This document shows, piece by piece, positions 6,778 through 64,000 of a stretch of 64,000 nt of DNA (its first letter is position 1; each line of letters opens with the position of its first letter). Position numbers and translations under genes: made by a program. Under the pieces are notes generated by a model. The model saw nothing but the letters and a program-made list of their open reading frames with translations. It was not told the origin of the DNA and ran no database searches. Origin of the DNA: an uncultured Actinomycetota bacterium (lineage in GTDB: Bacteria; Actinomycetota; Actinomycetes; Streptosporangiales; Streptosporangiaceae); contig CAVRXH010000006.1 in assembly GCA_963725175.1 (NCBI GenBank), positions 5,939,580 through 6,003,579 on the forward strand, given 5' to 3'.

Positions 6778-7603
6778 CTACGTGCGCGAGGGCAAGATCC
6801 TCGGCCAGTACGTCGCGCAGCACTTCAAGGGGAAGAAGATCGGCTTCTTCTACCAGGACGACGAGTTCGGCCAGGACGGGGTCAAGGGCCTGGAGGACGA
6901 GATCCCCGCGAAGCAGGTCGTCGCCAAGGAGGCCTACGACCCGACCAACACCACGGTCGGCCCGCTGGTCGCCAAGCTCAAGGCGGCCGGGGCGCAGGTC
7001 GTCGTCTCGTTCTCGGTGCCGGCCTTCACCGCGCTGCTCAAGCTGAACGCGCTCGGGCTGAGCTACAACCCGCAGCTCGTGGTCAGCAACGTGGGCGCGG
7101 ACGCGATCACCCTGGCGGGCCTGCTTCAGGCGTTCGCCGCCAAGGCGCACCAGAAGGTGAACGGCAACGAGCTGACCCAGGGCATCATCACCGACGGCTA
7201 CCTGCCGACCCTGGGGGACACCAGCAACGGCTGGATCTCGCTGTTCAAGCAGATCCACGACAAGTACATCCCGAAGCTGCCGTTCGACGGGAACGTGCTC
7301 TACGGGATGTCGTCGGCCTACACCTTCGCCGAGGCGATGTTCAAGGCCGGGCGTAACCCGACCAGGCAGGATCTGGTCAACGCGATCAACGGCGGGCTGG
7401 CGCAGGGCGTGGCCATCGCGCCGTACGCCTACTCGGCGACCAACCACAACGGAGTCACCGGCGCCTACATCGGCATCATCAAGGACGGCGTGCTGGTGCA
7501 GACCGGCCCGGTGCTGGTCACCGACACCAGCCCGACCGGTGCCATCACGCCGGACACGACGCCGCAGCCGGCGGCGCCCGCGAACGGCATCCCGCCGCAC
7601 TGA
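6260..7603 (+). CDS. ABC transporter substrate-binding lipoprotein (branched-chain amino acid/LivK family)
   Basis: A strong GAAGGAGAAAGG RBS precedes the start. The lipobox LLAACGSS sits in the signal peptide. The type I periplasmic binding fold sequence is followed by a Pro-rich C-terminus. Confidence 0.85.
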   Translation: MKRTRTVTLAPVAGLAAVAMLLAACGSSGSSGSGKSGSGSALTASAPGVTATTITIGSHQPLTGIAAPGYDEIAPAANAYFQYLNAHGGIYGRKIDYKYLNDQYNPSLTSTVVRQLVLKDNVFAIFNGLGTPTHLAVAPFLNSEKVPDVFVASGCECWNAPSKWPYTFGWQLDYVREGKILGQYVAQHFKGKKIGFFYQDDEFGQDGVKGLEDEIPAKQVVAKEAYDPTNTTVGPLVAKLKAAGAQVVVSFSVPAFTALLKLNALGLSYNPQLVVSNVGADAITLAGLLQAFAAKAHQKVNGNELTQGIITDGYLPTLGDTSNGWISLFKQIHDKYIPKLPFDGNVLYGMSSAYTFAEAMFKAGRNPTRQDLVNAINGGLAQGVAIAPYAYSATNHNGVTGAYIGIIKDGVLVQTGPVLVTDTSPTGAITPDTTPQPAAPANGIPPH

Positions 7604-7744
7604 CCGCACGGCCCGGTGCCCGCCGGTGATCATGAAGCGGGCACCGGGCCGGCGGGCGCCGGGGCGGACTGCCACACTGGTGCTGACCAGCGGAGTTCAC
7701 GCTGGTCAGCGTCCCGCCGCGACAGATCAGCAGAGGTAGCCAGC

Positions 7745-9022
7745 GTGAGTATCGCACCCAGCCGCAAGCCGGCCGCGCGGGACCGGCCGCCGGCCGAGCG
7801 ACTGCTGAGCGCGGCCGAGCGGCTGTTCGGCGAGCGCAGCTACCGGCGCACCACCGTGGCCGACATCTGCGCGCAGGCCGGCATCGCGACGGGCAGCTTC
7901 TACGCGCACTTCGGCTCCAAGTCCGACATCTTCGCGGCGGTCATCCGGCAGATCAACGCCGACCTGCGGGCGACTATGTCGGCGGCGCTGGACACCGCGG
8001 CGGGCAATCAGCGGGCCAGGGAGCGCGCCTCGTTCCGTGCCTATTTCGACCTCATGTCGGAGCGGCCGTGGATCTTCCGCATCGTCCGCGAGGCGGAGTT
8101 CCTGGCGCCGGGGGAGTTCCGCGCCTACTACGAGCGGCTGGCCAGGGGATACGCGCGGGGTGTCCGGGCGGCGCAGCTCGCCGGCGAGGTCGACGCGCGC
8201 TATGACCCGGAGGTCATCGCCTACGTCTACACCGGGCTCGGCAACTTCATCGGGATGCGCTGGGCCGAGTGGACCGCGGGCGGCCGGGTCCCCGACGACA
8301 TCTTCGAGGACGTGATGAGCGTCCTGGCCCGCGGCCTCCCCCCGCCGGCCCCGCCTAGCTCGCCGGCCTGCCGCCGCGCCATCCCGGCTTATCGGGTAGC
8401 GCTTTGGGCGTATGCGGCCCCAAAGCGCTACCCGATCATGAAGTACTCAGCTGCTGGGGCGGCGGCCGGCGAGGGACCAGGCGGCGGGCAGCAGGCCGGC
8501 CGCGATGGCGGCCTTGATCGCGTCGCCGATCAGGAACGGGGTCAGCCCGTCGGCGATCGCGGCGGACACGCTCAGGTGCAGCGACACCGCCAGCCAGGTC
8601 ACGCCGACCGCGTAGATGACCACCTCGCCGGCCAGCATCACCGGCACCGAGCGGAGCACGGAGCGGTCGCCGCCCCGGCCGGCCAGGTAGCCGCACAGCG
8701 CCGCCGCCAGGAAGAACCCGACGATGTACCCGAACGACGCGCCCACGTAGCCGCTGGCGTGCCCGGCGAACCACGGCACGCCGGCCACGCCGGCCACCGC
8801 GTACAGGGCCATCGCGGCGGCGGCCCGGCGCCAGCCGAGCGCGGTGCCGGCGAGCAGCACGCCGAGGGTCTGCCCGGTGACCGGGACTGGCGTGAACGAC
8901 AGGTGGATCTGGAGCTGGGCGAGTACGCCGACGAACCCGGCCGCGCCGACCACGAGCAGGATGTCCCTGACCAGGGTGCCGGGCAGCAGGTCGGCCAGCA
9001 CCAGCGGGCGCGGGCGTCGTAG
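7745..9022 (+). CDS. TetR/AcrR family transcriptional regulator. The TetR domain covers ~7745-8350; the ORF runs on to 9022, antisense through bioY
   Basis: GTG start. The N-terminal HTH is RTTVADICAQAGIATGSFYAHFGSKSDIF. The ~200 aa regulator fold ends at …VLARGLPPP. No in-frame stop precedes the palindromic element at 8391-8436, so the 3' end is suspect. Confidence 0.55.
   Translation: MSIAPSRKPAARDRPPAERLLSAAERLFGERSYRRTTVADICAQAGIATGSFYAHFGSKSDIFAAVIRQINADLRATMSAALDTAAGNQRARERASFRAYFDLMSERPWIFRIVREAEFLAPGEFRAYYERLARGYARGVRAAQLAGEVDARYDPEVIAYVYTGLGNFIGMRWAEWTAGGRVPDDIFEDVMSVLARGLPPPAPPSSPACRRAIPAYRVALWAYAAPKRYPIMKYSAAGAAAGEGPGGGQQAGRDGGLDRVADQERGQPVGDRGGHAQVQRHRQPGHADRVDDHLAGQHHRHRAEHGAVAAPAGQVAAQRRRQEEPDDVPERRAHVAAGVPGEPRHAGHAGHRVQGHRGGGPAPAERGAGEQHAEGLPGDRDWRERQVDLELGEYADEPGRADHEQDVPDQGAGQQVGQHQRARAS
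8391..8436. repeat. Palindromic element copy 1 (18-bp perfect stem, 10-nt loop) at the convergent junction of the TetR and bioY genes
   Basis: ATCGGGTAGCGCTTTGGG-cgtatgcggc-CCCAAAGCGCTACCCGAT. A near-identical element in inverted orientation lies at 63405-63458. Confidence 0.6.
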
Positions 9023-9039
9023 CGTATCTGAGTGCGACA
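8447..9039 (-). CDS. bioY: Biotin transporter BioY (ECF S-component)
   Basis: ATG at 9039 with a GGAGG RBS. MSHSDTLRRPRPLVLADLL… matches the BioY family through five to six TM segments. Confidence 0.8.
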
Positions 9040-9073
9040 TCGGGGCGGAGCCTCCTACTGAAGGGCGCGTGAC

Positions 9074-9586
9074 GTGGAGCCGGACGTGCTGGGACGCTAC
9101 CACGAGGGTGCTTTGCCGACATTCCGGGCATCGAGCGCACCGGCTGCCGACGCCTCCGGGCCACCCCTGCCCGACCTGCTGAGCTACCTGCGCGGCGACT
9201 GGCAGGTGGCCCGCCGGCTCACCGATCACCGGTCCGGCACGGCGGGGGAGTTCACCGGCACCGCGTCGTTCCGCGCGCTGGGCAGGGCCGGGCTGGCGTA
9301 CCGGGAGGAGGGGGAGCTGCGGTTCGGGGGGCACCTGGGACCGGCCAGCCGAGACCTGATCTACCTCGCCGCTGCGGACGGCGCGCTAGATGTCCGGTTC
9401 GGCGACGGGCGCGCGTTCTACCGGCTGGAGGCGAGCGGCGGCCGGTGGACCGCCGGGCACCCGTGCGGCCTGGATCACTACCAGGTCACCGGCGAGCTGC
9501 TCGGCGCCGGCCGGTACGCCGAGCACTGGCAGGTCACCGGGCCCGCCAAGAATTACGAGATCGACTCCACGCTGGTCCGCCGGTGA
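9074..9586 (+). CDS. Hypothetical protein (170 aa), first gene of a three-gene translationally coupled operon
   Basis: The ORF has coding-type GC3 bias. Its stop overlaps the next gene's start (GTGA at 9583-9586). Confidence 0.5.
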   Translation: MEPDVLGRYHEGALPTFRASSAPAADASGPPLPDLLSYLRGDWQVARRLTDHRSGTAGEFTGTASFRALGRAGLAYREEGELRFGGHLGPASRDLIYLAAADGALDVRFGDGRAFYRLEASGGRWTAGHPCGLDHYQVTGELLGAGRYAEHWQVTGPAKNYEIDSTLVRR

Positions 9587-11319
9587 CCGGCGCGGACGGC
9601 TACTCCGGCACCATTCCCCGGCTGCTCGCCCAGGCCGCCGGCCGGGACGCCGCAGGCACCTGGCTGCGCGCCGACTCGGGGACGCTGACCTTCGGCGGCG
9701 CGGCCGCCGCGACCGCGCTGACCGCGCAGGTGCTGACCGAGGCCGGGGTGCGCAAGGGCGACCTGGTGATGATGACCGCGCGGAACATCCCGCCCTACCT
9801 CATCTGCTGGCTGGCCCTGACCTCGCTCGGCGCGGTCACCGTCGCGGTGAACCCGCGCAGCCAGCCCGCCGAGCTGGCCGGGCTGATTTCCCAGGTCAGC
9901 CCGCGCGCCCTGATCACCGACGACACCCTCGCCGAGCTGACCGGCGTGGCCCTGGCCGGGGTCGCCGCACCCGGAGCGCCCGCACCCAGCTCCGCCGCAG
10001 CCGGCACCGCCGAGCCAGGAGTCGCTGGACCAGGGAGCTTCGCGTCCTTGGCCGCCGCGGCGCCGGCCGGGCTGGCCGTGCTCGACGTCGCCGGTCTGGT
10101 GCCGGCCGGCTGGGCCGACCCGGCCGCGATGGCCGCCGCCGCGCGCCGGGCCGGGCCGCTGCCCGACGTGGCCAGGCCGGACGACCCGGCCACCCTGATC
10201 CCGACCTCGGGTACCACCGGCCGGTCCAAGCTGGTCATCCAGACCCACCGGGCGTACGCGATGGCCGGCGAGGGTTTCCCGTACTGGATGGAGCTGACCG
10301 CCGCCGACCGGATGATGACCTCGCTGCCGCTGTTCCACGTCAACGCGCCCGCCTACTCCGTGCTCGGCTCGCTGGCCTGCGGCGCGGGGCTGGTGCTGCT
10401 GGAGCGGTTCTCGGCCAGCGGGTTCCTGGACGCGGCGCGGCGGCACGGGGCGACCGAGTTCAACGCCATCGGGGCGATGCTGGAGATGCTGATGCGCCAG
10501 CCCGAGCGGCCCGATGACGCCGGCACCCCGCTGCGGCTGTGCTACACAGGACCCGCGCCCGAGCGCGACCGGCACCTGGAGATGGAACGGCGGCTCGGCC
10601 TGCGGATCGTCGTCGGCTACGCGATGTCGGAGTCCCCGTACGGGCTGATCTGGGCGCGCGGCACCCGCCCGTACGGCACCCTCGGCTCGGTGCGCCAGCA
10701 CCCGGTGCTCGGCACCGTCAACGCCGCGCGGGTCGTCGCGCCGGACGGCACCGACCTGCGCCCCGGCGACAGCGGAGAGCTGCTGCTGCGCAACCCGGCC
10801 GTGACGCCGGGCTACTTCGGCATGCCGGAGGAGACCGCGCGGGTGATCACCGGCGGCTGGCTGCACACCGGCGACCTGGTCACGGTGAACGCCGACGGCA
10901 CCTACACGTTCGTGTCCCGGATCAAGGAAGTGATCCGCCGCCGTGGCGAGAACCTGTCGCCGCTCGAAGTCGAGGACGTCCTCGCCGCGCACCCGGCGGT
11001 GCTGGAGTGCGCCGTCACCGGGGTGCCCTCCGATCTCACCGAGGAAGAGGTCAAGGCCTTCGTCGTGACGGCCGGGGACCAGCGCGCCGACTTCGCCGAG
11101 CTGCATGCCTTCGCCGCCGCCCGGCTCGCCGCGTTCAAGGTGCCCCGGTACTGGCAGCAGGTCAGCGAGCTGCCCAGGACCCCGACGGCGCGAGTCGCCA
11201 AGCACCTGCTGCCGGCCGGGCACCCGCCCGGCGAGTACGACGCCCGCCCGCCGGACCAGGCCTCCGCCCACCCGGCCCAGCCCGCAGAGCCGGCCCAGCC
11301 CGCACAGGAGACCCCGTGA
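9583..11319 (+). CDS. AMP-dependent synthetase/ligase (acyl-CoA synthetase, ANL superfamily)
   Basis: AMP-binding motif IPTSGTTGRSKLVIQTHRAY and the …YRTGD…-like motif LHTGDLV. The GTG start overlaps the upstream stop. The C-terminus is Pro/Ala/Gln-rich. Confidence 0.8.
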   Translation: MTGADGYSGTIPRLLAQAAGRDAAGTWLRADSGTLTFGGAAAATALTAQVLTEAGVRKGDLVMMTARNIPPYLICWLALTSLGAVTVAVNPRSQPAELAGLISQVSPRALITDDTLAELTGVALAGVAAPGAPAPSSAAAGTAEPGVAGPGSFASLAAAAPAGLAVLDVAGLVPAGWADPAAMAAAARRAGPLPDVARPDDPATLIPTSGTTGRSKLVIQTHRAYAMAGEGFPYWMELTAADRMMTSLPLFHVNAPAYSVLGSLACGAGLVLLERFSASGFLDAARRHGATEFNAIGAMLEMLMRQPERPDDAGTPLRLCYTGPAPERDRHLEMERRLGLRIVVGYAMSESPYGLIWARGTRPYGTLGSVRQHPVLGTVNAARVVAPDGTDLRPGDSGELLLRNPAVTPGYFGMPEETARVITGGWLHTGDLVTVNADGTYTFVSRIKEVIRRRGENLSPLEVEDVLAAHPAVLECAVTGVPSDLTEEEVKAFVVTAGDQRADFAELHAFAAARLAAFKVPRYWQQVSELPRTPTARVAKHLLPAGHPPGEYDARPPDQASAHPAQPAEPAQPAQETP

Positions 11320-18921: not shown

Positions 18922-19346
18922 CGCGTGTGTCCTCCTCGCGTCTGCTGCAAACTATATCAAGCAAATCGCGTGCTATGCCAAGCGCCCCAGCTAGCGACGC
19001 CGGGGCGAGGCAGTTCCGCCAGGTCGGCCACGCCGGCACCGCTGCCAGGTCGGCTGCACCCGCATCTCCCTAGGTCGCCCACGACGGCATCGCCGCCACC
19101 TCGGCCACGCCGGCATCGGCATCCCGGCAACAGTGGATGCGGGTTTGCTGCGGTCGCCACGGCAGCAAAACCCGGCTCGCTGCCGCTGGGTCCGGCGTGC
19201 CCCCATCTGCTTCGCGCCCGCTGGGGGCGGTGCTACGCCCGCGCCGGCTCGCTGCCGCTGGGCCGCCGTCGGCTGCCGGCCACGCCGTGCTTGCTGCCTG
19301 CTGAGGTCGGCCGCCCGGCGGGCGAAACCCGCCGGGAACTAGCAAC

Positions 19347-19400
19347 AGTGAACCCGCTTTTACTGTCGCTGAAACGACAGTAAAAGCGGGTTCACTGTCG
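19347..19400. other. Perfect 23-bp inverted repeat (hairpin) with a 6-nt loop
   Basis: CAGTGAACCCGCTTTTACTGTCG-ctgaaa-CGACAGTAAAAGCGGGTTCACTG. Confidence 0.8.
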
Positions 19401-19434
19401 TAGGCGTCCGCAGTTCAGCTGATAACAGCAAGAG

Positions 19435-19560
19435 GCAGGGCAGGGCAGGGCAGGGCAGGGCAGGGCAGGGCAGGGCAGGGCAGGGCAGGGCAGGGCAGGG
19501 CAGGGCAGGGCAGGGCAGGGCAGGGGCAGGGGCAGGGCAGGGGCAGGGGCAGGGGCGGGG
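19435..19560. repeat. Pentanucleotide microsatellite (GGGCA)n: about 18 perfect units followed by degenerate GGGGCA/GGGGCG units. G-quadruplex-forming on the plus strand
   Basis: A direct read shows cagggcagggcaggg… for about 90 nt, then caggggcaggggcagggcaggggcaggggcaggggcggggcgg. A GA-rich G-tract region continues to ~19740. Confidence 0.95.
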
Positions 19561-44119: not shown

Positions 44120-44221
44120 GTGCTGATCGTGGACACCGGGCCACTGGTCGCGGCGGCCGGTCTCCACATTCGGAGACCGGCCTTAAACCCGGACTGTGCG
44201 TGGGCGGTACTGGGATTGAAC
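44116..44221 (+). pseudogene. Truncated vapC (PIN toxin) remnant: 35 codons that read into the 3' end of tRNA-Val(GAC)
   Basis: VLIVDTGPLVAAAG… parallels the intact VapC N-terminus MTMLIVDTGPLVAYLN at 48040. The ORF terminates inside the tRNA acceptor/T-arm sequence. Confidence 0.45.
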
Positions 44222-44272
44222 CAGTGACCCCTACCGTGTCAGGGTAGTGCTCTCCCGCTGAGCTAACCGCCC
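44201..44272 (-). tRNA. tRNA-Val (anticodon GAC)
   Basis: Hand-folded: acceptor GGGCGGT/ACCGCCC, anticodon arm CTACC-CTGACAC-GGTAG, T-arm ACTGG-TTCAATC-CCAGT. Confidence 0.9.
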
Positions 44273-44276
44273 GCAG

Positions 44277-44348
44277 AGGCGGAAGCGGGAATCGAACCCG
44301 CGTAAGGGGCTTTGCAGGCCCCTGCCTAAGCCACTCGGCCATTCCGCC
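44277..44348 (-). tRNA. tRNA-Cys (anticodon GCA)
   Basis: Hand-folded: acceptor GGCGGAA/TTCCGCC, anticodon arm GGGGC-CTGCAAA-GCCCC, T-arm GCGGG-TTCGATT-CCCGC. Confidence 0.9.
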
Positions 44349-44429
44349 ACAAGCCGCCCCGGGGAGCTGGCCTGAGTATCTCTGAGCCGTACTGGCCGTC
44401 GACTCGCGAGACGGCTTCCGGCGCTTCCG

Positions 44430-44502
44430 AGCGGACGACGGGATTCGAACCCGCGACCCTCACCTTGGCAAGGTGATGCTCTACCAACTGAGCCACGTCC
44501 GC
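44430..44502 (-). tRNA. tRNA-Gly (anticodon GCC)
   Basis: Hand-folded: acceptor GCGGACG/CGTCCGC, anticodon arm TCACC-TTGCCAA-GGTGA, T-loop TTCGAAT. Confidence 0.9.
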
Positions 44503-46496: not shown

Positions 46497-46919
46497 TCAG
46501 GCGCGCCAGAGCAGCTCGTCAAGCTCGGTGTCGACGTCGAGGAACTCGCCCTCGCGCCCGGCCGAGATCATGTCAAAGGTCCTGGTGAGGAACGCGGCGG
46601 TCGCCTCGCGCGGCGCCTCGAAGTGTGCCTCGCCGAACGGTGAGGACAGGGCCAGGTTCAGCACCGGCCTGCCGCGCTCATTCGACGGCCAGACCTGGAC
46701 ATCGCCCTCGCCGGCCGGGCCGTCGAGGCCCGCCGTGAGCAGCTCGCGTGCGAAGATCCACTCCACCGGCTCGTCGGCGCCGACGTGGAACGACATGCGG
46801 ATCGCATACGGGTCGTCGGCGCTGTAGCACAGGCTGGCCACGAGGGGAACGGCTCCGTGCTCGGGAACCACCAGGCTGAGACCAAGCTCAGCGGTCACGG
46901 TAGCGCTGCTGTTCATCAT
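46497..46919 (-). CDS. ssgB: SsgA-like protein (SALP), SsgB-type sporulation-specific cell-division protein
   Basis: MNSSATVTAELGLSLVVPEHGAVPLVASLCYSADDPYAIRMSFHVGADEPVEWIFARELLTAGL…VQVWPS…LNLALSSPFGEAHFEAPREATAAFLTRT is closely similar to actinomycete SsgB. A ~650-bp lower-GC leader lies upstream. Confidence 0.75.
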   Translation of the reverse strand: MMNSSATVTAELGLSLVVPEHGAVPLVASLCYSADDPYAIRMSFHVGADEPVEWIFARELLTAGLDGPAGEGDVQVWPSNERGRPVLNLALSSPFGEAHFEAPREATAAFLTRTFDMISAGREGEFLDVDTELDELLWRA

Positions 46920-47584: not shown

Positions 47585-47656
47585 GGGCGATTGGCTCAGC
47601 GGAAGAGCGCTGCCTTCACACGGCAGAGGTCGCTGGTTCGAACCCAGCATCGCCCA
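47585..47656 (+). tRNA. tRNA-Val (anticodon CAC)
   Basis: Hand-folded: acceptor GGGCGAT/ATCGCCC, anticodon arm CTGCC-TTCACAC-GGCAG, T-arm GCTGG-TTCGAAC-CCAGC. Confidence 0.9.
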
Positions 47657-48533: not shown

Positions 48534-49976
48534 GTGCAGACTGGCGGCGTGCTGCTGACGATCTCCACGACTCATGCTCCGGCGTCCGATCTCGGGTACC
48601 TGCTGCATAAGCACCCCGGCCGGGTTCAGGCGTTCCCGCAGTCGGTGGGCACCGCGCACGTCTTCTACCCGGCGGTCAGCGACGAGCGCTGCACGGTGGC
48701 GCTGCTGCTGGAGGTTGACCCGGTGGCGCTGGCGCGCGGCCGGGCGGGCCGGCGCGGCGAGGCGTTCCCGCTGGGGCAGTACGTCAGCGACCGGCCCTAT
48801 GTCGCGTCCAGCATGCTCGCGATGGCGCTCAAGGATGTCTTCCGCACGGCGCTGACCGGGCGCTGCGACGCCCGTCCGGAACTGGCCGCCGCGGCGATCC
48901 CGCTGGAGATCGGAATCCCGGCGGTGCCCAGCCGCGGCGATGCGGACCTGCCCCGGCGGCTGTTCGGGCCGCTGGGCTGGCAGGTCGCGGCGGCTCGCGG
49001 GCCGCTTGACCCGGAGATCCCGGACTGGGGCGACTCGCCGTACGCCGATGTCCGGCTCACCGGCGAGCTCCGGCTGGCCGATGCCCTGAACCACCTGTAC
49101 GTGCTGCTCCCGGTGCTGGACGACGCCAAGCACTACTGGGTCAGCGAGGACGAGATCGGCAAGCTGCTCCGCGCGGGCGAGGGCTGGCTGCCGTCGCACC
49201 CGGAGCAGGAACTGATCACCCGGCGGTACCTGTCGCACCAGCGGGACCTGGCCAGGTCGGCGCTGGCCCGGCTGGCGGAGGCCGACGACGCCGGGCCGGC
49301 CGAGTTCGACAACGCCCCGGACGGCGCGGTCGCGCTCGATGACCCGCGGCGGCCAGGCGAGCTGGCCGGGCAGCGGCGGGCGGCGGTGCTCGCCGCGGTG
49401 CTGGCGTCGGGGGCGCGCCGGGTCGGTGACCTGGGCTGCGGCGAGGGCCTGCTGGCGGCGGACCTGCTGGCCGCGCCGGGCATCGAGCAGGTAGTGGCCA
49501 CCGACGTGTCGGCGCGGGCGCTCCAGATCGCCGCGCGGCGGCTGGGCCTGGACCAGATGCCGGACCGGCAGCGGCAGCGCCTGGAGATCTTCCAGTCGGC
49601 GCTGACCTACCGCGACGACCGGCTGGCGGGCCTGGACGCCGCCGTCCTGATGGAGGTGATCGAGCACATCGACCCGCCGCGGCTGGACACGCTGGAACGG
49701 GTGGTTCTCGGCCACGCGGCCCCGGCCACGGTGATCATCACCACCCCGAACGCGGAGCACAACGTGCTGTTCGACGGCCTGCGAGCGGGCGGGCTGCGGC
49801 ACGCGGACCACCGGTTCGAGTGGACGCGCGAGCAGTTCAGGGCCTGGGCGAGCCGGGCGGCGGCCGCCTACGGGTACACGGCCGCGTTCGCCGGAATCGG
49901 CCCCGACGACCCGCGGGTCGGGCCGCCGACCCAGCTCGCCATCCTGACCAGGACCGGGGCGGAGGTGCCCGCATGA
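48534..49976 (+). CDS. hen1: 3'-terminal RNA ribose 2'-O-methyltransferase Hen1 (bacterial)
   Basis: The C-terminal methyltransferase region reads VGDLGCGEGLLAADLL…VLMEVIEHIDPPRLDTLERVVLGHAAPATVIITTPNAEHNVLF. The N-terminal Hen1 domain is present. The stop overlaps the pnkp start (ATGA). Confidence 0.8.
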   Translation: MQTGGVLLTISTTHAPASDLGYLLHKHPGRVQAFPQSVGTAHVFYPAVSDERCTVALLLEVDPVALARGRAGRRGEAFPLGQYVSDRPYVASSMLAMALKDVFRTALTGRCDARPELAAAAIPLEIGIPAVPSRGDADLPRRLFGPLGWQVAAARGPLDPEIPDWGDSPYADVRLTGELRLADALNHLYVLLPVLDDAKHYWVSEDEIGKLLRAGEGWLPSHPEQELITRRYLSHQRDLARSALARLAEADDAGPAEFDNAPDGAVALDDPRRPGELAGQRRAAVLAAVLASGARRVGDLGCGEGLLAADLLAAPGIEQVVATDVSARALQIAARRLGLDQMPDRQRQRLEIFQSALTYRDDRLAGLDAAVLMEVIEHIDPPRLDTLERVVLGHAAPATVIITTPNAEHNVLFDGLRAGGLRHADHRFEWTREQFRAWASRAAAAYGYTAAFAGIGPDDPRVGPPTQLAILTRTGAEVPA

Positions 49977-52558
49977 GCGCGGAACTGGGTGTCCCCGAGC
50001 TGAGCCTGATCGTGCTGATCGGCGTCACGGGGTCGGGAAAATCGACGTTCGCCCGGACGCGCTTCCGGCCGACTGAGGTCATCTCCTCGGACTTCTGCCG
50101 CGGCCTGGTCGCCGACGACGAGAACGACCAGTCGGCGACGCCCGAGGCCTTCGAGCTGCTCTCCTACATCGTCGGCAAGCGCCTGGCGGGGGGCCGGCTG
50201 ACCGTGGTGGACGCGACCAGCGTCCAGCCGGGCGCCCGCAGGCCGCTGGTCGCCCTGGCCAGGGAGCACGACGTGCTGCCGGTCGCGATCGTGCTGGATG
50301 TCCCCGAGGGCACCTGCGCGGCCAGGAACGCGGCGCGGCCGGACCGGGACTACGGCAGCCAGGTGGTCCGCCGCCAGCACGACCAGCTCCGGCGCGGTCT
50401 CAGCGGGCTGCGCCGGGAGGGCTTCCGCGCGGTCCACGTGCTGCGCGGCACGGCCGAGATCGACGCGGCGAGCATCACCAGGACCCGGCTGTACAACGAC
50501 CTGCGTGCCGAGAACGGGCCGTTCGACGTCATCGGCGACGTGCACGGCTGCCGCGCCGAGCTGGAAGGGCTGCTGGCCGAGCTGGGCTACGAGATCACCA
50601 GGGACGGCCAGGGCCGTGCCACGGGCGCGCACCACGAGGGCCGCCGGGCGGTCTTCGTCGGGGACCTGGTGGACCGGGGCCCGGACACTCCCGGCGTGCT
50701 GCGGCTGGTGCTGGGGATGGTCTCCGCCCAGGACGCGTACTGCGTGATGGGCAATCACGAGAGCAAGCTGCTGCGGGCCCTGCGCGGCAGCAAGGTCCAG
50801 GTCAGTCACGGCCTCGCGCAGTCGCTGGCGCAACTGGAGTCGGAGCCGCAGGAGTTCAGGATCGAGGTTGAGCGGTTCCTCGACGGGCTGATCAGCCACT
50901 ACGTCTTTGACGGCGGGCGGCTGGTGGTGGCGCACGCGGGCCTGATCGAGCGGTACCAGGGCCGCGCGTCGGGACGGGTCCGGTCGTTCTGCCTGTACGG
51001 CGACACCACGGGGGAGACCGACGAGTACGGGCTGCCGGTCCGCTACCCGTGGGCCCGCGACTATCGCGGCGCGGCGATGGTGCTGTACGGGCACACGCCG
51101 GTGCCCGCGCCGGAATGGGTCAACAACACGCTCTGCCTGGACACCGGCTGCGTGTTCGGCGGCCGCCTCACGGCGCTGCGCTATCCCGAGCGGGCGATCG
51201 TCTCGGTGCCCGCCACCGCCGTGCACTACGAGCCGGCCAGGCCGTTCCCGGCCAGCCCGGAGGCGGGCGGCGAGACCGGGCCGGAGGCCGGCGGGGCGGT
51301 GGCGGGCCGCCGGGAGCCCGACGTGCTCGACATCACCGACGTCACCGGGACGCGGGTCATCGAGACGGCGTACCAGCCGCGCATCGGGGTGCGCGAGGAG
51401 AACGCGGCGGCGGCGCTTGAGGTGATGAGCAGGTTCGCGATCGATCCCCGCTGGCTGGTGTACCTGCCGCCGACCATGAGCCCGGTCGCCAGCTCGGCCG
51501 AGCCCGGCCTGCTGGAGCACCCGGCGCAGGCGTTCGACTACTTCAGGACCGCCGGCGTCGGCCAGGTCGTGTGCGAGGAAAAGCACATGGGCTCGCGGGC
51601 GGTCGCGCTGGTCTGCCGGACGCCGGGCGAGGCCAGCGCCAGGTTCGGCGTGCCGGACGGCCAGGCGGGAGCGGTGTGGACCCGCACCGGGCGGGCGTTC
51701 TTCCGCGACGAGCTGACCGGGCAGTTCACCGGCCGGCTGCGGGAGGCAGCCGAACGGGCCGGGCTGTTCGTCGAGCTGGACACCCCCTGGCTGCTGTTCG
51801 ACGCCGAGCTGATGCCGTGGAGCGCCAAGGCCGGCCCGCTGCTGCGCGACCAGTACGCGGCGATCGGCGCGGCGGCCCGTGCCGCGCTCCCGGCCGCCGT
51901 GGCGACCCTGGAGCAGGGGGCAGCGGCCGGGCTGGACCTGGGCGAGTTGCTCGGCCGCATGAAGGGGCGGGAGGCCCGCGCCGCCGCGTTCACGGCTGCC
52001 TACCGGCGGTACTGCTGGCCGGTTGCGGAACTAGCTGGCATCAGGTTCGCGCCGTTCCAGCTCCTGGCCAGCGCGGGGGCGGTGCACCAGGAGCGGCCGC
52101 ACGGCTGGCACCTGGCCCTGGCCGACCGGCTGGCCGGCGCCGACCCGGAGCTGATCGCGGTCACCCGGCGGACTGTCGTGGACGTCACGGACCCAGGCTC
52201 GGTCGCGGCGGGGTGCGAGTGGTGGGCCCGGCTGACCGGGGACGGTGGCGAGGGCATGGTGGTCAAGCCGGCCCGGAACCTGGCCAGGGACCGCAAGGGG
52301 CTGGTGCAGCCGGGCCTGAAGGTGCGCGGCCGGGAGTACCTGCGGCTGATCTACGGCCCCGACTACACCGAGCCGGCGAACCTGGAACGGCTGCGCACCC
52401 GGAGCCTGGGCCACAAGCGCTCGCTGGCGCTGCGCGAGTACGCGCTCGGCCTGGAGGCGCTGGACCGGCTAGCCAGGGGCGAGCCGCTGTGGCGAGTACA
52501 CCAGTGCGTCTTCGCCGTCCTGGCCCTCGAATCCGAGCCAGTCGACCCGCGCCTGTAG
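49973..52558 (+). CDS. pnkp: Polynucleotide kinase-phosphatase/ligase Pnkp (RNA repair)
   Basis: N-terminal P-loop kinase GVTGSGKSTFA. A calcineurin-type phosphatase follows (FDVIGDVHGC, GDLVDRGPD, GNHE). The C-terminal nucleotidyltransferase/ligase domain carries the lysine motif EEKHMGSRAV. Confidence 0.85.
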   Translation: MSAELGVPELSLIVLIGVTGSGKSTFARTRFRPTEVISSDFCRGLVADDENDQSATPEAFELLSYIVGKRLAGGRLTVVDATSVQPGARRPLVALAREHDVLPVAIVLDVPEGTCAARNAARPDRDYGSQVVRRQHDQLRRGLSGLRREGFRAVHVLRGTAEIDAASITRTRLYNDLRAENGPFDVIGDVHGCRAELEGLLAELGYEITRDGQGRATGAHHEGRRAVFVGDLVDRGPDTPGVLRLVLGMVSAQDAYCVMGNHESKLLRALRGSKVQVSHGLAQSLAQLESEPQEFRIEVERFLDGLISHYVFDGGRLVVAHAGLIERYQGRASGRVRSFCLYGDTTGETDEYGLPVRYPWARDYRGAAMVLYGHTPVPAPEWVNNTLCLDTGCVFGGRLTALRYPERAIVSVPATAVHYEPARPFPASPEAGGETGPEAGGAVAGRREPDVLDITDVTGTRVIETAYQPRIGVREENAAAALEVMSRFAIDPRWLVYLPPTMSPVASSAEPGLLEHPAQAFDYFRTAGVGQVVCEEKHMGSRAVALVCRTPGEASARFGVPDGQAGAVWTRTGRAFFRDELTGQFTGRLREAAERAGLFVELDTPWLLFDAELMPWSAKAGPLLRDQYAAIGAAARAALPAAVATLEQGAAAGLDLGELLGRMKGREARAAAFTAAYRRYCWPVAELAGIRFAPFQLLASAGAVHQERPHGWHLALADRLAGADPELIAVTRRTVVDVTDPGSVAAGCEWWARLTGDGGEGMVVKPARNLARDRKGLVQPGLKVRGREYLRLIYGPDYTEPANLERLRTRSLGHKRSLALREYALGLEALDRLARGEPLWRVHQCVFAVLALESEPVDPRL

Positions 52559-62760: not shown

Positions 62761-63318
62761 GTGTCCGATCCTCAGCCAGCAGGCGTCCCGGAGCCGGAGC
62801 CGCAGGACGGTGCCGGCACGCCGGACGGGTTCCAGCGGCTGTGGATGCCGCACCGGATGGCCTACATCAAGGGCGAGGGCAAGCCGGGGGAGTCGGGAGA
62901 ATGCCCGTTCTGCCGCATCCCCGGCCTGCCGGACGCCGACGGGCTGATCGTGGCCCGCGGCGTGCTGGTCTTCGCGATCCTGAACCTCTACCCGTATAAC
63001 AGCGGGCACCTGATGGTGCTGCCGTACCGGCACGTGGCGGACTACACGGACCTGGACGACAAGGAGACGGCGGAGCTCGCGGAGTTCACGAAGCGGGCGA
63101 TGACGGCACTGCGCGCGGCGTCGGGGGCGCAGGGCTTCAACCTCGGCATGAACATGGGCGCGGTCGCGGGCGCGGGGATCGCCGCTCACCTGCACCAGCA
63201 CGTGGTGCCGCGCTGGGGCGGCGACGCGAACTTCATGCCGGTTATCGGCCGCACCAAGGTGCTCCCTCAGTTGCTCGCCGACACGCGAGAGCTGCTCGCC
63301 GAAGCCTGGCCCCGCTAG
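62761..63318 (+). CDS. HIT family protein (Ap4A phosphorylase/GalT-like branch)
   Basis: Histidine triad HLHQHVVPR. The nucleotide-binding region is …LYPYNSGHLMVLPYRH…. Confidence 0.8.
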   Translation: MSDPQPAGVPEPEPQDGAGTPDGFQRLWMPHRMAYIKGEGKPGESGECPFCRIPGLPDADGLIVARGVLVFAILNLYPYNSGHLMVLPYRHVADYTDLDDKETAELAEFTKRAMTALRAASGAQGFNLGMNMGAVAGAGIAAHLHQHVVPRWGGDANFMPVIGRTKVLPQLLADTRELLAEAWPR

Positions 63319-63404
63319 CGGGGCCAGCCGGCGGCCGGGGCCAGCCCGGCCCGGCCCGGCCGACGCAACCCGGCCCGACCTGGGCCGCGCCGATCGGGCC
63401 GCTT

Positions 63405-63458
63405 CATGATCGGGTAGCGCTTTGGGCCACATACGCCCCAAAATGCTCCCCGATCATG
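63405..63458. repeat. Palindromic element copy 2 (imperfect; inverted orientation relative to copy 1 at 8391-8436)
   Basis: CATGATCGGGTAGCGCTTTGGG-ccacatacg-CCCCAAAATGCTCCCCGATCATG. The loop is the reverse complement of copy 1's loop, and the left flank CTTCATGATCGGG is the reverse complement of copy 1's right flank CCCGATCATGAAG. Confidence 0.6.
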
Positions 63459-63844
63459 AGAGTCACCCGGTGGCGGCGCCCGCCCAGTCACACGCATCAC
63501 TCCAGCGCCGTCGCCGGGCGGGGCAGGCGTGATCTTCAGGATCACGGGTCAGCGGGGGCCTGCGAAGCGGACGGGTGCTGGCTGGGGTTAGGGCGGCTGG
63601 GGCTGGGGGTTTGTATTGCCCGGGGGGTAACCCCCGGACCCCCAGACCGGGGGGCGGAGCCCCCCCGGAGCCCCCTCTGCCGGCCGCTCGGGCCGGGCCG
63701 GCAGGGCCCGACCCTCGCGGACGGCATTGCTGTGGCTGGGGTTTCCGGGCGGGCGGGTGGGCGGGCGTGGCTCGACCCGGTCCGGGCGACGCGGCTCACC
63801 CCGCCCTCAGCCGGCCAGGCCGGCCCCGCCGGGCCGGGCCCATC

Positions 63845-64000
63845 AGTCGGCCTTGGACTCCTCGGCTACCTTGCCCGCCAGGTGGCTGGGCAGCGGCTCA
63901 TGGCGGAGGTAGGAGCGGCTGAACGAGCCTGTGCCGTGGGACATGGAGCGGAGGTCGATGGCATAGCGGGTGATCTCCAGCTCGGGGATCTCCGCCTTGA
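63845..64000 (-). CDS. Elongation factor G-like GTPase, C-terminal fragment (5' partial at the window edge)
   Basis: The minus-strand translation …YAIDLRSMSHGTGSFSRSYLRHEPLPSHLAGKVAEESKAD* resembles the EF-G C-terminus. Confidence 0.45.

Follow-up and report, generated by a model that had tools for sequence, protein, structure and literature searches.

A palindromic element of about 56 bp occurs twice in the stretch of DNA analyzed here (the window, 64,000 nucleotides from an uncultured member of the Streptosporangiaceae), and an orthologous copy is present in a related contig. We lean toward the view that it is a small non-coding palindromic repeat, specific to one uncultured Streptosporangiaceae lineage and apparently low in copy number, that resembles MITE or REP elements. 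An earlier, sequence-only reading had called it REP/MITE-like. That description survives insofar as the palindrome is repeated and is present in some relatives and absent from others, but the searches reported below recovered neither a wider family nor a transposase, and the element has neither the stem length nor the unpaired tag that define REPs. If our preferred reading is right, the element would have spread as a non-autonomous MITE- or REP-like unit or by recombination between copies. Its importance is modest: it documents a small palindromic repeat in uncultured Streptosporangiaceae, a group for which such repeats are poorly catalogued.

Structure and genomic setting of the two copies

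Copy 1 lies at 8388–8443 and has type I arms on both sides. Its core, at 8391–8436, consists of the left arm ATCGGGTAGCGCTTTGGG, the loop CGTATGCGGC and the right arm CCCAAAGCGCTACCCGAT, and the arms are paired at 18 of 18 positions around a loop of 10 nt, just as the sequence-only reading had described it. Copy 2, at 63402–63461, is a chimera. The left arm of its core (63409–63454) is identical to that of copy 1 and thus type I (ATCGGGTAGCGCTTTGGG), whereas its right arm carries three substitutions, also recorded previously, and is type II, the complement of ATCGGGGAGCATTTTGGG; the resulting stem has two uncompensated mismatches and one wobble. Neither copy is assigned to a strand. When the plus strand of copy 1 is aligned with the minus strand of copy 2, a stretch of 25 nt (CCCAAAGCGCTACCCGATCATGAAG) is identical, and the loop of copy 2 (CCACATACGC) is the inverted form of the copy 1 loop. 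The two loops had been described as reverse complements of one another; their inverted orientation is borne out, although the match extends to only eight of nine positions and requires a 1-nt shift.

The sequences just outside the core suggest that the palindrome was once longer. Copy 1 has CTT on its left and CATGAAG on its right, with CATG missing from the left side, whereas in copy 2 both arms are bordered by CATG, the left side also bears CTT, and the right side reads CATGAGAG. The flanks of the two copies had been reported to be reverse complements, and the relation between CATGAAG and CTTCATG is indeed as claimed. These motifs are best read as the outer portion of the palindrome, in which case the ancestral arms would have been about 25 nt long (CTTCATGATCGGGTAGCGCTTTGGG); on the simplest reading, copy 1 would be a remnant of such arms from which the left CATG was lost. 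The element as a whole therefore measures about 56 bp (46–56 bp), with arms of 18–25 nt and a loop of 9–10 nt.

The repeat stands out clearly from its background. With up to three mismatches allowed, the 18-nt arm has four matches in the window, whereas dinucleotide-preserving shuffles give an expectation of 0.06. For each copy, either strand is predicted to fold with an energy of about −40 to −46 kcal/mol (z from −3.8 to −6.8), and the element has a G+C content of 55–60% as against 72% for the window. Beyond the arms, the two copies show no significant similarity in either orientation, a score as high being reached by about 5% of random windows. Each strand of the element has one open reading frame; the other frames are closed by TGA and TAG stops.

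Proteins encoded in the window match those of metagenome-assembled Streptosporangiaceae. Copy 1 lies between a TetR-family gene on the plus strand and a BioY gene on the minus strand (PF02632 in the orthologous locus), the stop codon of the latter (8447–8449, minus strand) being 10 nt from the core stem. Copy 2, about 55 kb away, lies within a 525-bp spacer between a HIT-family gene on the plus strand, whose stop codon (63316–63318) is 86 nt upstream of the extended arm, and a gene for an EF-G paralogue on the minus strand (PF00679), whose stop codon (63843–63845) is 385 nt from the copy. The placement given by the sequence-only reading, 3′ of the plus-strand TetR and HIT genes and opposite converging genes, is thus confirmed for both spacers. 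A transcript from either converging gene would be expected to fold into a stem of about −40 kcal/mol, and such a stem, once transcribed, could block 3′ exonucleases or slow read-through in both directions. Any such hairpin function would probably be dispensable at these junctions, because in relatives the stop codons there adjoin or overlap.

The open end of the TetR reading frame, which has no in-frame stop before 9022, requires an explanation that does not involve the palindrome. TetR orthologues are 202–212 residues long and end in ARGLPPP followed by 2–10 residues. The closest of them (P0001, 204 residues, 97% identical) is encoded at locus L007, where the gene ends in CTC CCC CCG CCC GGC CAC TCC TAG; the equivalent sequence in the window reads CTC CCC CCG CCG GCC CCG CCT AGC. 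The ancestral stop is therefore still present as a TAG at 8356–8358 on the plus strand, aligned with the TAG that ends P0001 but out of frame, because a C-rich run at 8340–8350 (plus strand) is one base shorter than in L007 (gccggcc vs. gcccggcc). This indel, rather than the palindrome, put the stop out of frame, and it may reflect a genuine frameshift or a miscounted homopolymer in a long-read assembly. The proposal that insertion of the element removed the TetR stop does not hold, as the TAG is intact and the palindrome begins 32 nt downstream of it. An annotation trap is thereby corrected: the open-ended TetR frame stems from the indel in the C-run and not from the repeat.

Several further observations concern the 3′ end of the HIT gene. 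In relatives, HIT ends at ...GCCTGGCCGGTATTGCCCGGGGGGTAA, whereas in the window some 300 additional bp follow GCCTGGCC and create a new end, AWPR* (63312–63631), with a relic, GTATTGCCCGGGGGGTAA, persisting at 63614–63631. Copy 2 sits within this extra DNA, and the AWPR* end is common to the window and the contigs L016 and L030. Relatives at 89–90% identity have a different HIT 3′ end, directly next to which lies another small mobile element. The contigs L017 and L018, which come from sister samples, encode an identical HIT protein but differ by a 255-bp element (L018, 10553–10826; L017, 10553–10571) that has terminal inverted repeats of about 28 nt (GGGGGTAACCCCCGGACCCCCAGACCGG) and is inserted at the TA of GGGGGTAACCCCC. 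The left half alone of this element is found in the window at 63617–63742, in the same spacer as copy 2.

Elsewhere in the window, a perfect low-G+C palindrome with 24-bp arms (ACAGTGAACCCGCTTTTACTGTCG, loop CTGAAA) is directly followed by about 20 tandem GGCAG/GGGCA pentamers (19345–19538), adjacent genes for Hen1 (PF12623) and a Pnkp ligase (PF16542) at 48543–52558 constitute a bacterial RNA repair system, and an SsgA-family gene occupies 46497–46889.

The same junctions in related genomes and exchange between arms

At the TetR/BioY junction (site B), the spacer is 88 bp long in the window and 82 bp in L007. The first ~33 nt and the last 16 nt (GATCATGAAGTGCTCA) of the L007 spacer can be aligned to the window, but between them lie 36 unrelated nt without a palindrome, and an outer arm end is retained. 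The two sequences are 97% identical across the TetR coding region, 94% across BioY and 94% across a neighboring spacer, but only 63% identical across the site B spacer. Given the unrelated nucleotides and the retained arm end, the L007 locus is not a clean empty site. The element is also absent from site B in more distant relatives, where the two genes have no spacer (L008), overlap (L019) or are separated by 32 bp (L020).

At the HIT/EF-G junction (site C), contig L030, whose HIT coding DNA is 95.9% identical to that of the window, carries an orthologous copy at 891–943, within a 132-bp spacer. Its 22-bp arms (CATGATCGGGGAGCATTTTGGG) are perfectly paired, and its loop (CCACATACG) is the same as that of copy 2. 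The presence of the element in this independent metagenome contig rules out an assembly or adapter artifact. L029, a contig from the same sample as L030 whose HIT protein falls into the same 90%-identity cluster as that of the window, has no element at the HIT site, although divergence of its spacer prevents an empty site from being defined. Taken together, the two junctions show that the element has been gained or lost between genomes that differ by 3–6% in their flanking coding DNA.

Comparison of the three copies reveals two types of arm. Type I arms, with T, G and C at arm positions 7, 11 and 12, are found on both sides of copy 1 and on the left of copy 2; type II arms, with G, A and T at these positions, are found on both sides of the L030 copy and on the right of copy 2. 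Three stem pairs are thus changed on both sides among the three copies (U-A to G-C, G-C to A-U, and C-G to U-A), with copy 2 as the mismatched intermediate. As a test of covariation, three sequences do not beat a shuffle control, in which 159 of 500 randomizations score at least as high. The positions at which the arms of copy 2 disagree, however, are exactly those at which L030 differs from copy 1, a coincidence with a probability of about 2e-5 by our own arithmetic, which indicates that sequence information has moved between arms, between copies, or both.

During replication, template switching is reported to make the arms of inverted repeats uniform and to flip the spacers between them (PMC8604942, PMC8794818). 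The arms of the element could be kept complementary by this process or by gene conversion, within and between copies, and template switching would account for the perfect arms of the L030 copy, the chimera in the window and the inversion of the copy 1 loop with respect to that of copy 2. Since template switching inverts spacers, the opposite orientation of the loops is no proof that the two copies were inserted in opposite orientations. With its two kinds of arm, its single chimera and its inverted loop, the element offers a compact case of concerted evolution of inverted-repeat arms. A separate, operator-like palindrome just 5′ of the TetR start (7682–7710) has perfect 11-bp arms (GCTGACCAGCG / CGCTGGTCAGC) in the window but only about six matching pairs in L007 and L008, and it may be another case of arm homogenization in the genome from which the window comes.

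Searches for further copies and competing explanations

A covariance model (R1) built from the three copies scores copy 1 at 72.9 bits and copy 2 at 81.5 bits. Run over the 64-kb window with filters off and over 109 kb of related loci with default filters, it identified no copies beyond those in the window and L030; its other matches were unrelated G+C-rich hairpins. Exact scans with the type I arm returned six matches in GTDB species genomes, six in JGI metagenomes and one in IMG/VR, and we attribute all 13 to chance, as they are single arms within coding regions of unrelated taxa. One of the JGI matches (L014, Ga0066648_10038113, 68–93) extends to 26 nt of exact identity with the right arm and flank of copy 1 (CCCAAAGCGCTACCCGATCATGAAGT); the extra 8 nt beyond the 18-nt seed have a chance probability of about 4e-4, and the match lies in the nusG coding sequence of an unrelated organism with 48% G+C. 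The type II arm (ATCGGGGAGCATTTTGGG) had no matches in IMG/VR, blastn against plasmids and phages returned nothing meaningful, and peptides from the open frames of the element yielded no candidate among 5.8 billion protein clusters. Rfam searches at gathering and permissive thresholds reported only four tRNAs and sub-threshold matches to microRNA hairpins. Three of the tRNA genes are clustered on the minus strand and one is on the plus strand (44201–44502 and 47585–47656).

A source of mobility was likewise not apparent. A Pfam scan identified no transposase among 50 open reading frames of the window, and no parent insertion sequence with matching ends was recovered from GTDB, JGI and IMG/VR by the exact type I arm or from plasmids and phages, although exact-arm scans would miss diverged ends. 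The check for target-site duplications that the sequence-only reading had proposed gave no clear duplication at either copy, and there is no direct repeat outside the arms. The tetranucleotide CATG borders both ends of copy 2 and of the L030 copy and is absent to the left of copy 1, but it cannot be scored as a target-site duplication because it is itself palindromic.

The end of the arm does occur on its own. The 10-mer GATCATGAAG has three matches in the window, compared with 0.04 expected, and the third of these (7628–7637, plus strand), which is conserved in L007, lies about 800 bp upstream of copy 1 between a binding-protein gene and TetR. There it occupies the loop of an unrelated hairpin with 15-bp arms (7609–7651; counterpart in L007, 3054–3096). 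A 12-mer that includes it, GTGATCATGAAG, is found both at 7626–7637 of the window and at the palindrome-free site B of L007 (3873–3884). Such lone sites may have been left behind by copies since lost, or they may mark a preferred target or a short homology that insertion makes use of. A small open reading frame starting at the ATG of GATCATGAAG was considered and rejected, because the peptides downstream of it show no conservation from one site to another and L007 does not maintain the frame. More speculatively, the palindrome might be the tip of a self-propagating hairpin element that integrates beside its own end motif, GTGATCATGAAG, in 3′ spacers and is perhaps mobilized by an HUH/Y1-type single-strand transposase with its gene in another part of the genome. 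We consider this a long shot, but, if true, Actinobacteria would gain their first described REPIN-like system, one whose stems are unusually long.

Other explanations would do without mobility. The element might be a factor-independent bidirectional terminator or a stabilizer of mRNA 3′ ends, kept by selection at two convergent junctions; this seems to us unlikely, although it deserves serious consideration. Each copy is found shortly after a stop codon in a convergent spacer, the stems are very stable on both strands, the arms of the L030 copy are perfect with three pairs changed on both sides, and TRIT, with 147 copies in M. tuberculosis, provides an actinobacterial precedent (PMC3152330). 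However, there is no T-run or U-tract on either side of the stem, and a scan of 7400–9600 found no terminator-like sites, while the RNA polymerase of mycobacteria depends on a U-tract (PMC3993855). The absence of a T-run after the stem, whichever strand is read, means that the element is not a canonical terminator. A selected terminator is also hard to reconcile with the mismatches and the wobble in the stem of copy 2, with the distance of 385 nt between copy 2 and the EF-G stop, and with close relatives that have no hairpin at the same junctions, some with stop codons that abut or overlap. Moreover, a strong hairpin is lacking from most of the window's remaining convergent junctions.

It is more doubtful still that the palindrome is a one-off, made in place as a hairpin by template switching and copied once by ectopic recombination or gene conversion, with no family and no mobility. 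Such an origin would fit the failure to find a third copy in the window, the related loci, the public scans and the protein clusters, and the palindrome-free site of L007 already contains the outer arm CTACGTGATCATGAAG, which suits either formation in place or short homology for copying. On the other hand, the existence of two arm types and a chimera implies that exchange occurred more than once, GATCATGAAG is present at a third site, and the GTDB and JGI scans covered the exact type I arm only. Least probable of all, in our judgment, is that the palindrome is recognized by a DNA-binding dimer, for example the TetR regulator encoded alongside it or a protein of the nucleoid or of recombination. 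Although the dyad symmetry is perfect and one copy adjoins the TetR gene, both copies lie at the 3′ ends of genes rather than at promoters, copy 2 adjoins unrelated genes, and L007 encodes a 97%-identical TetR yet has no such site; the separate operator-like palindrome just upstream of the TetR start also argues against it. Arms of 18–25 bp with 10 nt between them far exceed typical operators. An integron attC site was rejected by inspection, as there is no RYYYAAC or GTTRRRY core. We continue to favor a low-copy, lineage-specific palindromic repeat, a reading that fits its occupation of at least two sites, its gain or loss at roughly 5% divergence, a G+C content below that of its host, the concerted evolution of its arms, and junctions in relatives that do without it.

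Comparison with known systems

The element shares several properties with REPs and with REPIN-RAYT systems (PMC2817692, PMC3733652, PMC3116915). These are extragenic palindromes found mostly 3′ of genes, they have sub-variants with complementary changes in the stem, their copies differ between related strains, and they are plausibly transcribed as RNA hairpins. There are also differences. REPs have a stem of 5–13 bp and a total length of 20–40 bp (PMC3733652, Table 1), whereas the element has a perfect stem of 18 bp (22–25 bp when extended) and a total length of 46–56 bp. REP families carry an unpaired GTAG/CGTC tag, and the survey that defines them reports no such repeats in Actinobacteria (PMC3733652); in the element, GTAG is found only within the paired type I stem (ATCGGGTAGCGC) and is replaced by GGAG in type II. 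REPs occur in doublets or clusters, whereas the element occurs as singletons. REPs number tens to thousands per genome; the copy number of the element appears very low, with two copies in 64 kb of window and one orthologous copy in 109 kb from relatives. Finally, REPINs are accompanied by a RAYT, an IS200-like Y1 transposase flanked by repeats, and none was found among 50 open reading frames of the window. On stem length and tag, the element is not a member of a REP family as defined by Di Nocera et al. (PMC3733652). Were many genomic copies and a dedicated transposase to be found, REPIN-like biology would be extended to Actinobacteria.

Like a MITE, the element has terminal inverted repeats, and as a whole it consists of two inverted arms. 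The Correia/NEMIS elements of Neisseria are bacterial MITEs of 100–155 bp that are made up almost wholly of terminal inverted repeats. With these the element shares long inverted arms around a short center, an intergenic location, presence or absence at orthologous sites, and the capacity to fold as RNA. It differs from them in its length of about 56 bp, in its two known sites, and in having neither a demonstrable target-site duplication nor a parent insertion sequence with matching ends among the sequences searched.

Hairpins shaped by template switching (PMC8794818, PMC8604942) resemble the element in arm homogenization and spacer inversion; this process would explain how its symmetry is maintained, but not why the same 56 bp is found at two loci 55 kb apart. 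The nearest actinobacterial precedent is TRIT, a sequence-conserved palindromic terminator restricted to Mycobacterium (PMC3152330). TRIT differs in copy number and is centered about 8 nt before the stop codon, whereas the stems of the element lie 7–10 nt and 86 nt after stop codons; like the element, it is an actinobacterial palindrome of conserved sequence that is located at the ends of genes and usable from both strands.
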